Assembly: GCA_045600805.1 (NCBI GenBank)
Contig: JAZRYQ010000020.1
Location: 1-40,061, forward strand
From: Candidatus Alloscillospira sp.
GTDB lineage: Bacteria > Bacillota > Clostridia > Oscillospirales > Oscillospiraceae
DNA: 40,061 nt
Direction: 5' to 3'
The notes under the pieces were generated by a model. The model was not told the origin of the DNA. It was given only the letters and a program-made list of their open reading frames with translations, and did no database searches. Position numbers and translations under genes: made by a program. Positions 31,901 through 40,061 of the stretch are shown here, one piece after another; position 1 is the stretch's first letter; every line of letters starts with the position of its first letter.

Positions 31901-33857
31901 TCGGAGGGGTATACTTCCATACTGCGTACAATGTGGTATCGGCATTCGCTGTAAATGAACCGCCTGCCGAATAGGTTGCGCTCGCCGCACCGCTGCTCGT
32001 GCTCCATCCGAGGAAAGTGTAATTCGTTCTCGTCGGTATTACACCCGAAAGCACCAATGAAACACCGTAAGTCTTGGTTTGACTTGCGGGTGCGCCTGAA
32101 CCTCCATTGGCGTTATAGGAGATCGTATAAGTCGGAGGCGTATACTCCCAAACGGCATACAGCATCGTATTTGCATTTGTTGTAAAGGTTCCACCTGCGG
32201 CATAGGTGGCAACCGTTGCCGTACTGCTTACACTCCAACCGAGAAACGTATAATACGTTTTTGTCGGTTTGGTAACGGAAAGGATCAAGGTCACGCCGTG
32301 CGTCTTGGTTTGAGCGGACGGTGCGCCTGTGCCACCGTTTGCGCTATACGAAATCGTATATGTGGTAGGCGAATAACTCCATACCGCATACAATGTCGTG
32401 TTTGCATTTGTGGAAAAGGAACCGCCCGCCGAATAGGTGGCACTTGTTGCCGTACTGCTTGTACTCCAACCGAGAAAAGTGTAATTGGAACGTGTTGGCT
32501 TTGTATTCGACAGTGTCAGTGTCACGCCATAGGTCTTGGTTTGACTGGAAGGTGCTCCGCTTCCGCCGTTGGCATTATACGATATTGTGTATTTCGCCGG
32601 CGAATAACTCCACACCGCATATAAAGTCGTATTTGCATTGGTTGTAAAGGACGCACCCGGTGAATACGTCGCACTTGTCGCCGTACTGCTTGTACTCCAT
32701 CCAAGGAAAGCATAATTGCTTCTCGTCGGCTTTGTACTTGATAGCGTCAAGGTTACATTTTGCGTTTTGGTCTGACTTGCAGGCGCACCGGAACCGCCGT
32801 TGGCGTTATAGGAAATCGTATATGTTTTTGGCGTATTGGATTCCCATACCGCGTATAAAGTCTTCGTGGAATTGACCGTGTACGATCCACCCGGCTGATA
32901 GGATGCCACGCTTGAGCTACTGCTTGTTCCCCAACCCTTGAAGGTATACCCGCTACGAGTCGGAACGTCCGATGGAAGAGTCATATCCCTGCCGTAAATT
33001 TTGGTAACGCTGCCCGGCGCTCCGCTGCCGCCGTTAGCATCAAAACTGATGGTATAGGTGTTCAAATCATAATAGTAGTCGATATTACAAACACGATTAA
33101 TGCAATAGTCCATCTTACCATGCTTTGATTCACTATACGTAGACCAATCGTCCATATCTTCCGATAAAGGTGTGTTTACATATTTATAACTGTAACAACG
33201 CGGACTGGAAGGCATATTTTTGTACTTTCCAACCCATGTCCACGAGAACTTACCGGAAATACTCGACTCATAACCGTCTTTGAGATGATAGCCGGTAATT
33301 GTCCTTTTGGATGTCGAAATATAGTCATAGTAGTCAATGGTTGACGAGGCTGAATCGTACTTTGTGTAGTACTTGTAATTCGGATTGGTCGGGTCAATAT
33401 TCTGAATATAGTGATTTACAACAAGTTGTATACTCTCGGATTTTCTTACAGTAACAGTGGCCTCTAGTTGGCTCTTACTAAGTCCGGTGTAAAACTGATA
33501 ATTGATTTGAATATATGCCGATGTGCAAAGGCCTGTCCCACTCGTCCACGTAATTTTACAGGTTTCAAGCAGACTTTGGTTGCTTGAAAAAGCTACGATA
33601 TCGTAGCCATACAGAGAAAGCGAAATTAGATCGTCCTCTCCTGTTTTAGTATGATAAGTTACCTTCTTGACAAGACTTCCGCTTGTATCCACACAACTTA
33701 CGACGACCGTTCGGTTGCATTCGCTTGACGGAAACAGATACTCTACCGAAGATGTTCCGTCCGGCTCATAGTATGTTGCGCTGACTGCAAGTGACATAAC
33801 CATGAGCATCATGATCGCAAACAGCGCAACAAATAAGATTTTTATTTTTCTCTTCAT
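28986..33857 (-). CDS. Giant secreted repeat protein / putative adhesin: signal peptide, Cys/Tyr-rich N-domain, 12 Listeria-Bacteroides (Flg_new-type) repeats, two CARDB-like domains, C-terminal beta-rich domain; no LPXTG
   Basis: Signal peptide MKRKIKILFVALFAIMMLMVMSLAVSA. Repeat unit YT[IV]S[YF]NANGGSGAP.SQTKTYGV.LTLSS.KPTR..YTFLGW.T.S.AT.A.Y.AGGS.T.NA..TLYAVW. CARDB-like ends ...EVDSSNNSKSAVLTV and ...EEDRTNNTVTF. Confidence 0.85.
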   Translation of the reverse strand: MKRKIKILFVALFAIMMLMVMSLAVSATYYEPDGTSSVEYLFPSSECNRTVVVSCVDTSGSLVKKVTYHTKTGEDDLISLSLYGYDIVAFSSNQSLLETCKITWTSGTGLCTSAYIQINYQFYTGLSKSQLEATVTVRKSESIQLVVNHYIQNIDPTNPNYKYYTKYDSASSTIDYYDYISTSKRTITGYHLKDGYESSISGKFSWTWVGKYKNMPSSPRCYSYKYVNTPLSEDMDDWSTYSESKHGKMDYCINRVCNIDYYYDLNTYTISFDANGGSGAPGSVTKIYGRDMTLPSDVPTRSGYTFKGWGTSSSSSVASYQPGGSYTVNSTKTLYAVWESNTPKTYTISYNANGGSGAPASQTKTQNVTLTLSSTKPTRSNYAFLGWSTSSTATSATYSPGASFTTNANTTLYAVWSYSPAKYTISYNANGGSGAPSSQTKTYGVTLTLSNTKPTRSNYTFLGWSTSSTATSATYSAGGSFSTNANTTLYAVWSYSPTTYTISYSANGGTGAPSAQTKTHGVTLILSVTKPTKTYYTFLGWSVSSTATVATYAAGGTFTTNANTMLYAVWEYTPPTYTISYNANGGSGAPASQTKTYGVSLVLSGVIPTRTNYTFLGWSTSSGAASATYSAGGSFTANADTTLYAVWKYTPPTYTVSFNANGGSGAPSSQTKTYGVALTLSSVVPTRNGYTFMGWGTSSKATTASYQPGSSYTGNGALTLYAIWEAIPPNTYTISYNANGGSGAPASQTKTEDVTLTLSSTQPTRTNYTFLGWAKSNTATGAEYLAGGIFTLNTSVTLYAVWTYTPTTYTISYSANGGSGAPSSQTKIYGEALTLSSTKPTRKNYTFLGWSACSTATSATYSAGGSYTVNASATLYAVWSYTPATYTVSFHANGGSGAPSDQTKTDDVTLILPATIPTRSQYTFLGWATNSTATSAAYSAGGSYTANASITLYAVWSYTPDTYTVSYHANGGTGAPASQTKTYGVTLTLSSVKPTRSQYTFLGWSTSSTATTATYSAGGSYTVNAGATLYAVWSYTPDTYTVSFNANGGTGAPASQIKTYGVTLTLSSVKPTMEGYDFLGWSTNSTATSATYTAGGSYTANAGATLYAVWRIKTYSVVYNGNGGSGVPASQTKTYGIALTLSSAKPTRSGYDFLGWSADSKATSATYVPGASYTANGAITLYAVWEKTNYDLSVTSISLSETESSKYGSVTVTSVVDSWDMKNAYSGISVELLYDGSVVSAKTINLSAYGRATLTFTLSVGSATGDHTVTVRINWADRSREVDSSNNSKSAVLTVKDYDYAQSVKQVTVDADYVAGNTVISSFIIYNDGTEDIVPDKHNRVHFRAYYFSGSAEVSVTSQDWEDFVIPTGKSNLVYFKWTVPTTLAGKTVYCECTTNYGGTLNEEDRTNNTVTFSKKIVTVADSQTPNTRYEADKPASYGGLSAPSVTAGSATWNQYVYENGAFVLKNYGIKVSTASPSVAPEGNCSTAVYESGKWTMKSGYGITVSYAPGISTLGGYSMPDSNAYTGAQSVVAAFPEFNYSLANGSCRTLQLVGGTYCFAPNSCAENSGRVHFIPVWFKDGNYVVSVTATQIWTPAGMITATRNANTVAINGTIYDDWYLGQK
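30300..33056 (-). repeat. 12 tandem coding repeats of about 231 bp (about 77 aa)
   Basis: Counted from the translation. First unit starts at the TAT at 33056 and the last ends ...TLYAVWE at about 30300. Confidence 0.85.
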
Positions 33858-34816
33858 TCATTTCCTCCGTTAAACACTGTCTTGCCGTCAAGATAATCCA
33901 AAAGGAGACAGTTGCCTTCAATGGACACACCGAATTGTTCCATAGCTGTCCTTTCCAGTCTATCCTTTTCAGATTCCTCGGATTCTGCAAAACAAGAAAC
34001 AAGCTTTTCCTGCCAGTCCGCATGGTATTCGGACTGCGCCAAAGAGCCGACGTAAAGGAGTTGTGCTTCCACGATTTCTTTTTCGCCGACACCTTTTTCC
34101 GTTAAATATGCGACAATCGCTTCAAGCCATCCCGTGGTGTCGTCAAGTTCTCTTGCAATGCAAAGCTTTGCGGCAGTCCCATCAAGAGTGACCGTCCGTG
34201 GCTTGACTTCCGAAAACAGCACAAACAGCGGCATAGCCCCCATGGTGTCGTTTTTCACAATGTCGAATATGTTATCCGCATTGATACCGAACACCTTATT
34301 CACAAGGTTCGGAAAATCCTCGGTAATGCCGTACTCGGGTACACAAGCCGACAGCATTTCAAGATAATCGGCATCGTTCACGTCATACGACAAGCCGAAA
34401 TTGAAATGGAATCTCTGCACCTGCCGAATGGCATCTTCGCAATATCCCTTATCCGCAAAATGGTTGATCAGAACAAACAGATCGTTTTCGACCTTATTGT
34501 AATAATCGTCATTCGGTTCGGGATAAATGAGATTCATGTTATCATCCGTAAGATACAACCCGTTCTCATCTGTCTGCGCCACGCCTAGGCTCATCCGATA
34601 AGCGAGAGACAAAATGCCGTCTTCAAGGAGGATTCTGCGTTCATCGGATAATGAAACAACATCGTTTTCATGAATATCTGTTTCGGTAACATCCACGTCA
34701 CCCGTGTCTGCCGGATGATCCGCGCTTTCGGGGATCACATAAAGGATGATCGGAACGAGGATTGCCGCACAGCAAAAAATCGCCACCACAGCGATAAACC
34801 ATTTATTCCTCATCAC
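33854..34816 (-). CDS. Membrane-anchored extracytoplasmic protein (320 aa), unknown function
   Basis: N-terminal signal-anchor MMRNKWFIAVVAIFCCAAILVPIILYV. ATGA overlap with the adhesin gene start. Confidence 0.6.
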   Translation of the reverse strand: MMRNKWFIAVVAIFCCAAILVPIILYVIPESADHPADTGDVDVTETDIHENDVVSLSDERRILLEDGILSLAYRMSLGVAQTDENGLYLTDDNMNLIYPEPNDDYYNKVENDLFVLINHFADKGYCEDAIRQVQRFHFNFGLSYDVNDADYLEMLSACVPEYGITEDFPNLVNKVFGINADNIFDIVKNDTMGAMPLFVLFSEVKPRTVTLDGTAAKLCIARELDDTTGWLEAIVAYLTEKGVGEKEIVEAQLLYVGSLAQSEYHADWQEKLVSCFAESEESEKDRLERTAMEQFGVSIEGNCLLLDYLDGKTVFNGGNE

Positions 34817-40012: not shown

Positions 40013-40061
40013 TCTTGTCCTCCGCCGGTTTTTTTGCAAGGTAATCGTCCTGAGCTTTGAG
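40005..40061 (-). CDS. 3' end of an upstream minus-strand gene (partial; ...LKAQDDYLAKKPAEDKNG*)
   Basis: Open frame from the window edge to the TAA at 40005..40007, overlapping the next start by 8 nt like other coupled junctions here. Too short to assign. Confidence 0.35.
   Translation of the reverse strand, partial: LKAQDDYLAKKPAEDKNG

Follow-up and report, generated by a model that had tools for sequence, protein, structure and literature searches.

What is the machinery of a pilus doing inside a conjugative element of the Gram-positive type? The question is raised by a contig from Candidatus Alloscillospira sp. (Oscillospiraceae; assembly GCA_045600805.1, contig JAZRYQ010000020.1), which was analyzed over its entire 40,061 bp and is referred to here as the window. 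Its two ends lie inside a cpaB gene and 138 bases beyond a tyrosine recombinase gene, and every substantial open reading frame (ORF) is on the minus strand. A tightly coupled array at 33854–40061 (minus strand) holds genes of the Tad type and leads into the gene for a 1623-residue adhesin built of Flg_new repeats; this array, first described in an earlier note on the same DNA, was confirmed by our analysis. On balance, we favor the explanation that a Tad/Flp-type (type IVc) pilus operon is represented here by its distal two-thirds, that the operon is a conserved backbone module of widespread conjugative elements of Clostridia, and that its pilus and adhesin aid mating-pair formation.

The truncated array and its gene products

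The genes of the array are coupled in translation and point the same way as the transfer genes; their spacings are −22 to +19 nt, with a single exception of 83 nt between cpaE and cpaF. Scanning for promoters and terminators gave results no different from those for shuffled sequence, and the operon limits were not defined by the scan. The module is truncated by the contig end, because positions 40005–40061 encode the C-terminus of CpaB/RcpC: translation of these 57 terminal bases gives LKAQDDYLAKKPAEDKNG and a stop, and the corresponding C-terminus in locus L088, the closest relative found (a 26-kb metagenome contig from the Joint Genome Institute, JGI), is YLKAQDDYLAKKTAEDSNG and a stop. L088 is colinear with the window (DNA identity 86–90% over 35022–40061 and 84% over 26370–29105) and continues upstream of cpaE with ParB, four DUF6133 genes (Pfam, 2e-21 to 2e-8), a TadV-type A24 peptidase (198 residues; PF01478, 1.1e-7) and CpaB (RcpC PF16976, 1.2e-12; SAF, 5e-9). 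The same layout is present in L001 and in a more distant, very common variant (L002–L007), the CpaF of which was found on 132 contigs. In these relatives, the complete module runs from one to four DUF6133 genes through the TadV-type peptidase, CpaB/RcpC, a MinD-type ATPase and CpaF to the TadB/TadC-like proteins and two minor-pilin-like proteins, and it closes with one or two anchored proteins and a variable Flg_new adhesin of large size. The earlier note had predicted that pilins and a prepilin peptidase would lie upstream of 40061, and that is where they are found in L088, L001 and L002–L007; its reading of the array as a Tad/Flp-like module (here, type IVc) also holds, given CpaF and a paralogous platform pair in the window and CpaB and the A24 peptidase in relatives.

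The CpaF-type ATPase is matched by Pfam T2SSE (4.6e-25) and by TIGR03819, the 'TadA family conjugal transfer-associated ATPase' (2.6e-37). Its closest solved relative in a PDB search is Caulobacter CpaF (6e-27), followed by archaeal GspE and FlaI (1.5e-20) and by VirB11 (9e-13), and its motifs are intact (Walker A GRTSSGKT, acidic box DPDVICVGEMR, His box HGG); an exact-sequence look-up returned no match. Assignment of this protein as the VirB11 of a type IV secretion system (T4SS) was considered and rejected, as CpaF and FlaI match far better and the neighbors are platform, peptidase and pilin genes. The ATPase in the CpaE position has only weak matches of the MinD/ParA type (NCBIfam minD_arch, 3.8e-5; PDB MinD, 2e-3; weak Pfam AAA_31/ParA). 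Called mechanically, its ORF extends to a TTG at 40039; in its 247-residue form it has a MinD-type P-loop domain in the expected place and no extra N-terminal (receiver-like) domain.

The two polytopic membrane proteins that follow (308 and 291 residues) gave no Pfam, NCBIfam or PDB sequence match, and profile searches of their two families against PDB sequences returned noise only. The families are mutually paralogous (hhalign, 90%, E = 1.7e-6, from alignments of 27–29 relatives), which reproduces the TadB/TadC pattern of two platform-protein families that are paralogues. Structure models were made using AlphaFold2 (AF2) with database homologues. For the TadB-like protein (mean predicted local distance difference test score, pLDDT, 76.8), the top seven Foldseek matches in the PDB were all cytoplasmic domains of EpsF, OutF or PilC, of the GspF family, with target-normalized template-modeling (TM) scores of 0.72–0.77 and root-mean-square deviations of 2.7–2.9 Å over ~105–118 columns (probability 0.95–0.98); the Foldseek E-values exceed 1 because the matched domain is small. 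A plasmid homologue of the TadC-like protein is annotated 'secretion protein F' (NCBI), and some homologues of the TadB-like protein are named TadB (JGI). The pair is accepted here as TadB/TadC-like platform proteins of the GspF family, as the predicted structure suggests.

An alignment of 29 DUF6133 proteins (62–85 residues) reveals a basic leader of 25–35 residues, a nearly invariant [GA]-E-G-Y-[VI]-D, a hydrophobic helix V-K-I-[LI]-I-A-V-V-I-G-A-L-L-L and then ~25 residues, for a predicted mature length of ~47 residues, which is Flp-sized. On these sequence features, the DUF6133 proteins are likely to be the pilins of the module. The signature [KR]-[GA]-(E/x)-G-Y-[IV]-(D) recurs at the N-terminus of two further families: the DUF4320 proteins carry NK[KR][GA]-EGY[IV]D, the same motif as in the DUF6133 pilins, and the second prepilin-like protein of the window (p166) has KAG-FSYILTCV in its N-terminus, where the consensus of its family is NK[RK]G-x[GS]Y[IV]..C. 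One motif in three families is the pattern expected of substrates of a single prepilin peptidase. The AF2 model of the DUF4320 protein (pLDDT 79) has a long N-terminal helix (residues 11–57, 47 residues) followed by a β-sheet, an architecture that, as modeled, is pilin-like; DUF4320 and p166 may thus be minor pilin-like or pseudopilin-like proteins. Exact look-up of the DUF4320 protein of the window found only contigs of ~1 kb and one NCBI assembly (GCA_024500545.1), and literature searches for DUF6133 or DUF4320 found no papers.

The adhesin has a Sec signal peptide and 12 Flg_new repeats, with 231-nt tandem repeats; when it was scanned for a sortase motif or a C-terminal transmembrane segment, no LPXTG-like motif and no C-terminal anchor were found. 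It is also among the fastest-changing products of the region. Protein identities between the window and L088 are 97% for CpaF, 95% for CpaE, 94% for TadB, 93% for DUF4320, 92% for TadC, 89% for p166, 87% for p253, 85% for p218 and 83% for YodL; set against these neighbors (83–97%), the adhesin (54%) and the signal-anchored protein p106 (58%) are low outliers. The divergence of the adhesin and p106 beside conserved neighbors fits selection on a partner-recognition function. p106 is fast-evolving but conserved in position, with homologues in 23 loci (jackhmmer); the second signal-anchored protein, p320, is absent from L088, has homologues in only 4 of 87 loci and matched no Pfam or NCBIfam family. 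No shufflon-like inverted repeats were found at 28900–35200, and it seems that the adhesin varies because a separate gene for it diverges or is replaced.

The interval between cpaE and cpaF differs locally from that of the relatives. At 39176–39272, the window has ~93–97 nt of extra sequence, whereas L088 and L001 have only 4 nt between the two genes. Two hairpins lie in the extra stretch, an imperfect-format one, GGTGAAACA...TGTTTCACC, and a perfect one, AAGTTGTGC-AA-GCACAACTT, the second of which is without a T-tail and occurs once in the window; the stretch may have been inserted as a small element, or it may be a regulatory RNA structure.

Position within conjugative elements

Downstream of the adhesin, the backbone continues unbroken through DUF4314, YodL/DUF3846, LPD28 and a 2963-residue methylase/SNF2 protein, and further through Toprim, MobC/NikA, a MOBP relaxase, an ArdC-like protein, a type IV coupling protein (T4CP), VirB2-like and VirB6-like proteins, RelBE, VirB4 and the tyrosine recombinase. 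The claim of the earlier note that the Tad array is contiguous and co-directional with a Gram-positive-type T4SS is borne out by the VirB4, T4CP and relaxase matches (Table 1). CD1110 and CD1115, the names of the VirB4 and T4CP families, are Clostridioides difficile 630 locus tags lying in CTn4, and the T4SS is called CTn4-like on that account. No cell-wall hydrolase or VirB8-like gene was recognized among the window proteins (Pfam, NCBIfam); for this reason, part of the T4SS may lie beyond position 1. No attachment (att) site is visible in the window and both contig ends are inside the element, which may be an integrative and conjugative element (ICE) or a plasmid.

Evidence for the boundary comes from relatives. 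An element of the L002 type was found in five copies, at least 97% identical to one another, in five unrelated genomic contexts. Similarity among the copies begins at one sharp left junction (...ATTCCCACTCTATTTTAGG) that precedes the pilin genes by ~5 kb, and VirB4 is found further downstream, past the adhesin; the shared junction on one side and VirB4 on the other place the Tad block inside the L002-type element. Of the proposal in the earlier note that an ICE carries the Tad module, the location inside a mobile element therefore stands, through the junction in the relatives, whereas the window's own element is a possible ICE.

One genome per GTDB species was surveyed using CpaF patterns, which gave 427 confirmed matches, the best 80 loci being kept; genes were counted by tblastn in these 80 loci together with L001–L007 (87 in all). 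The loci are almost all from Clostridia metagenome-assembled genomes (MAGs), labeled Eubacteriales, Acutalibacteraceae, Oscillospiraceae, Lachnospiraceae, Ruminococcus and Christensenella. Homologues of CpaE were present in 82 of the 87 loci, TadB in 81, CpaB in 75, TadC in 73, the A24 peptidase in 72, DUF6133 in 67, DUF4320 in 62 and the second prepilin in 58, the last directly after DUF4320 in every one of these 58; most absences arise because contigs are short. Recurrence of the same gene order in 87 loci from other assemblies is far beyond chance. Where flanks were long enough to be informative (5 kb or more on the upstream side, or 8 kb or more downstream), 62 of 63 loci share at least one backbone gene with the element in the window (ParB, YodL, LPD28, the SNF2 giant, ArdC, VirB4 or relaxase), and 41 of the same 63 have a stricter marker (VirB4, relaxase, MobC, ArdC, the SNF2 giant, LPD28 or Toprim). 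A Flg_new adhesin homologue stands right after the pilus genes in 44 of the 50 loci with at least 7 kb of downstream sequence. The backbone has two arrangements, with the YodL/LPD28 block either downstream or upstream of the Tad block. More widely, CpaF and TadB searches returned thousands of homologues from gut and rumen metagenomes.

In PLSDB, plasmids of Subdoligranulum, Terrisporobacter, an Oscillospiraceae isolate and Clostridioides carry the nearest CpaF homologues (34–42% identity). Terrisporobacter pTPHSE1 has, in order, two DUF6133 genes, A24 peptidase, RcpC/CpaB, ATPase, CpaF, TadB-like protein, 'secretion protein F', DUF4320 and a further gene; starting at the prepilin peptidase, this order is repeated on C. 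difficile pCd5_2, where the two small genes just ahead of the peptidase are annotated as hypothetical proteins. Downstream on both plasmids are a CD1115-family VirD4 (within ~1 kb on pTPHSE1, ~6 kb further on in pCd5_2) and a channel protein of the pLS20_p028 family, with a C40 peptidase on pTPHSE1. The module thus accompanies Gram-positive T4SSs on integrated replicons and on plasmids alike. It keeps its place across CpaF identities of 59–97%, across the two arrangements and, at 38–42%, on plasmids beside a CD1115-type T4CP, and this constancy is the pattern of a core gene, not of cargo. Co-divergence of CpaF with the backbone was weakly informative (ρ ~0.7 for p218 and p253, n = 16–17; ~0 for p279 and LPD28).

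Some module contigs are binned into MAGs labeled Sphaerochaetaceae (L022), Alistipes communis (L025), Bacteroidales (L045) and Alphaproteobacteria (L087); most likely a mobile element has been mis-binned, a real presence of the module across phyla being less probable. Separately, scaffold FR891099.1 (Firmicutes bacterium CAG:272) has two CpaF modules ~13 kb apart (L035 and L040) with an integrase-like match between them, a layout that suggests tandem or nested elements.

Proposed role and alternatives

From these parts we infer the following course of processing, filament assembly and conjugation. The A24 peptidase would cleave class-III signal peptides between [KR][GA] and EGY[VI]D in the DUF6133 and the two minor-pilin-like proteins, and CpaF, acting on the TadB/TadC platform, would polymerize the ~47-residue pilin into a thin filament passing through the cell wall; no secretin would be needed, because the host is monoderm. 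The filament, together with the exchangeable adhesin, would then bring donor and recipient together, in mating-pair formation or its stabilization, and the T4SS would transfer the DNA. The anchorless Flg_new adhesin may be presented on the pilus or alongside it. A role in transfer is argued mainly from the behavior of the module as a backbone component and not as cargo. We offer more tentatively, as a stronger form of this proposal that is somewhat less likely than not, that this Tad-type filament is the Gram-positive counterpart of the conjugative pilus, with a very abundant family of ICEs and plasmids of gut Clostridia depending on it to form mating pairs in liquid or in the gut and with the anchorless, rapidly exchanging adhesin setting the recipient range.

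Several points weigh against the proposed role. The pilin and peptidase genes are not within the window and are known from relatives; the Pfam Flp and TadE models gave no match; and the DUF6133 motif [GA]↓EGY[VI]D departs from the canonical Flp motif G↓XXXXEY (E+5/Y+6; ↓, cleavage position). Foldseek searches of the DUF4320 model against the PDB found no pilin, only low-TM matches to LptE and coat proteins, and the basis of the pseudopilin call is therefore the N-terminal motif together with the overall architecture. A single CpaF clade (59–97% identity), chosen by similarity, makes up the survey, other clostridial Tad systems lying outside it, and several of the survey markers (ParB and YodL) are genes of mobile elements, not of conjugation. 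The variability of the adhesin fits binding to host surfaces equally well. Finally, the searchable literature yielded no functional study of any member of the module, and Gram-positive Tad pili are otherwise linked to host colonization (Bifidobacterium; Cutibacterium acnes plasmids, PMC5696575) or to DNA uptake (Micrococcus, as cited in the same paper).

The main alternative, which is conceivable though we regard it as unlikely, is that the Tad module and adhesin are a colonization factor for the host cell, serving adhesion to mucus, plant fiber or other surfaces, or biofilm, with no part in DNA transfer; the element would then merely disseminate an adhesion trait of use to its host. Tad pili are needed for gut colonization in Bifidobacterium breve, the C. 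acnes plasmid tad locus, for which surface pilin and, by electron microscopy, appendages were observed, was read in the same way (PMC5696575), Flg_new repeats are typical of the surface proteins of gut- and host-associated Firmicutes, and a hypervariable adhesin fits adaptation to host or substrate. Cargo of this kind normally varies, however, whereas the module is kept in 62 of 63 loci over the whole range of CpaF identity, in both arrangements and on differently laid-out plasmids, and it is translationally coupled to, and co-oriented with, backbone genes. A dual role in transfer and colonization is possible. We consider it improbable that the Tad-type machine moves DNA directly, either as a translocation route working with VirB4/VirD4 (as has been proposed for PAPI-1) or as a DNA-uptake pilus. 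A tad locus is needed for transformation in Micrococcus luteus (a finding cited in PMC5696575), and the T4SS set visible in the window is rather minimal, with no cell-wall hydrolase recognized; but the window is cut at both ends, so that missing T4SS genes may be located beyond it, it does encode VirB6-like and VirB2-like proteins, the related plasmids have a full Gram-positive T4SS set that includes the pLS20_p028-type channel protein and the C40 hydrolase, and no ComEC/ComEA-type genes were seen.

Most remote of all is the reading of the Tad block as flanking chromosome or a decaying remnant that adjoins the ICE incidentally, the outcome that the earlier note had named as fatal to its interpretation. 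The window does have no visible att site and lacks its upstream end. The evidence nevertheless contradicts this reading: the five near-identical copies in unrelated contexts share their left junction ahead of the pilins and have VirB4 downstream, the module is also present on circular plasmids, and all ORFs are intact, with conserved catalytic motifs and thousands of homologues. The interpretation in the earlier note is, as a whole, partly supported, and what is added here is that clostridial conjugative elements widely share the module as a conserved part of their backbone and that an exchangeable adhesin is coupled to it.

How far does a mating pilus depart from known systems? The earlier note held that Gram-positive conjugation is seen as pilus-independent, and a 2025 review of T4SSs agrees: VirB2/VirB5 pilus subunits are absent from Gram-positive systems, which rely on surface adhesins, and type IV pili are mentioned only for IncI plasmids and PAPI-1, with Tad unmentioned (PMC12857230). 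The novelty was nevertheless overstated, since Tad-like clusters on plasmids have already been recorded. The backbone of Sulfobacillus thermotolerans pL15/pY0017 has MinD-like, CpaF and TadB/TadC genes beside relaxase, TraG and VirB4 (PMC6803676); the linear C. acnes plasmids p15.1.R1/pIMPLE have a tad locus with FtsK-like, VirB4 and TcpC genes (PMC5696575); and a plasmid was suspected in a C. difficile contig that has CpaB/CpaE/CpaF and ParAB (PMC5337907). A Faecalibacterium ICE census, a survey of gut mobile genetic elements and a megaplasmid preprint made no mention of pili. The Sulfobacillus and C. acnes clusters share with the window-type module the MinD-like, CpaF and TadB/TadC genes beside relaxase, coupling protein and VirB4, but, in a comparison made by description only, they belong to other phyla or orders with other T4SS backbones; the family studied here, in contrast, is mostly integrated, very abundant in gut Clostridia metagenomes and linked to a hypervariable adhesin. 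Imam et al. (2011) described a clostridial tad-like clade (tadA, tadC, tadV, tadZ, rcpC) without recognizable prepilins, with loci in C. bolteae, C. kluyveri, C. cellulolyticum, C. sp. L2-50 and D. hafniense (PMC3244431). This clade is probably the same module as that of the window. The pilins that the window lacks are probably the DUF6133 proteins.

With the monoderm Tad/Flp pili of B. breve and the operons of Imam et al., the module has in common CpaF/TadA, TadB/TadC, RcpC/CpaB, an A24 peptidase of the short TadV type and the lack of a secretin, as well as an ATPase with a MinD-type domain, candidate pilins that are very short and pseudopilin-like proteins. It differs in that its TadB/TadC, pilins and minor pilins escape Pfam T2SSF, Flp and TadE, in its cleavage motif ([GA]↓EGY[VI]D versus G↓XXXXEY), in its TadZ-position ATPase without a receiver-like domain, and in being inside conjugative elements ahead of a giant Flg_new adhesin. 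The best functional analogy would be the type IV pili of IncI plasmids and PAPI-1, which serve conjugation (PMC12857230, PMC9045228) and suggest stabilization of mating pairs in liquid or in the gut. The thin pilus of IncI1 R64, that of IncI2 TP114 (PMC9045228) and that of PAPI-1 (PMC12857230) likewise combine an element-encoded type IV filament machine with a T4SS and a variable adhesin; unlike the Tad-type, monoderm module, which has no shufflon-like inverted repeats, they are type IVb systems (PilQ/R/S/U/V) of diderms with a secretin and a shufflon. PrgB, the aggregation substance of pCF10, is also a large secreted repeat protein of a transfer region, plausibly for donor–recipient contact, but proteins of this type are LPXTG-anchored and pilus-free, whereas the adhesin of the window is anchorless and genetically coupled to a pilus machine.

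The recurrence of the module in many related elements suggests that these Gram-positive elements may use a pilus to find mating partners. The module is tied to conjugative backbones in Oscillospiraceae, Acutalibacteraceae, Lachnospiraceae, Christensenella and Peptostreptococcaceae. If it does promote mating, gene flow among gut Firmicutes, that of antibiotic resistance included, would depend on it to a major degree; the variable adhesin would provide a handle on host range; DUF6133 (major pilin), DUF4320 (minor pilin) and the TadB/TadC-like proteins would gain roles; and, under the stronger form of the proposal, the textbook view of pilus-independent Gram-positive conjugation would be overturned. 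The proposal is directly testable, as cultured strains of Terrisporobacter and C. difficile have homologous modules on their plasmids.

Other features of the window

The coordinates of the module, the adhesin and the conjugative genes are given in Table 1.

Table 1. Features of the window (positions on the 40,061-bp contig) and the evidence for each.
Feature	Position	Strand	Evidence
CpaB/RcpC-like 3′ end, 18 codons + stop, cut by the contig end	40005–40061	−	C-terminus match to L088 CpaB
MinD/ParA-type P-loop ATPase, CpaE/TadZ position, 247 aa from ATG	39266–40009	−	NCBIfam, Pfam and PDB, weak
CpaF/TadA-type secretion ATPase, 440 aa	37860–39182	−	T2SSE, TIGR03819, PDB CpaF
TadB-like platform protein (predicted GspF fold), 308 aa	36937–37863	−	AF2 and Foldseek; paralogy
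TadC-like platform protein, 291 aa	36050–36925	−	hhalign to TadB-like family
DUF4320 protein, 136 aa, candidate minor pilin/pseudopilin	35627–36037	−	PF14208, 7.5e-33; N-terminal motif
Second prepilin-like protein (p166), 158 aa from ATG, 166 aa from GTG at 35643	35143–35619	−	N-terminus
Signal-anchored protein (p106), 106 aa	34803–35123	−	Single N-terminal hydrophobic segment
Signal-anchored protein (p320), 320 aa, variable accessory gene	33854–34816	−	Single N-terminal hydrophobic anchor
Secreted adhesin-like protein, 1623 aa	28986–33857	−	12 Flg_new repeats, 7.8e-176
Remaining conjugative element genes	139–28170	−	Pfam and NCBIfam
MOBP relaxase	11441–12799	−	PF03432, 4e-37
CD1115-family T4CP	7390–9297	−	NCBIfam, 5e-150, above curated cut-off
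VirB2-like 150-aa membrane protein beside the coupling protein	7083–7535	−	Weak matches
CD1110-family VirB4	2783–5101	−	NCBIfam, 2e-289, above curated cut-off
Tyrosine recombinase	139–1068	−	Pfam

Three features of the transfer region itself were also noted. The VirB2-like protein matches T4SS_pilin (1.6e-4), TrbC/VirB2 (4e-4) and NCBIfam VirB2 (2.6e-4), all below the curated cut-offs, and a protein of this kind would be of interest in view of the reported absence of VirB2 from Gram-positive T4SSs (PMC12857230). Inside the row of T4SS genes, between those for the VirB6-like protein and VirB4, positions 5482–6131 (minus strand) encode a RelB/DinJ antitoxin (7.5e-17) and a RelE/StbE toxin (9e-6). 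The 2963-residue methylase/SNF2 protein is encoded by a single ORF at 15557–24448 (minus strand), preceded by the LPD28 protein, and joins a MutS_I-like segment, an Eco57I-type methylase and SNF2/helicase_C; its homologues follow the Tad/adhesin block in 15 of the surveyed loci.

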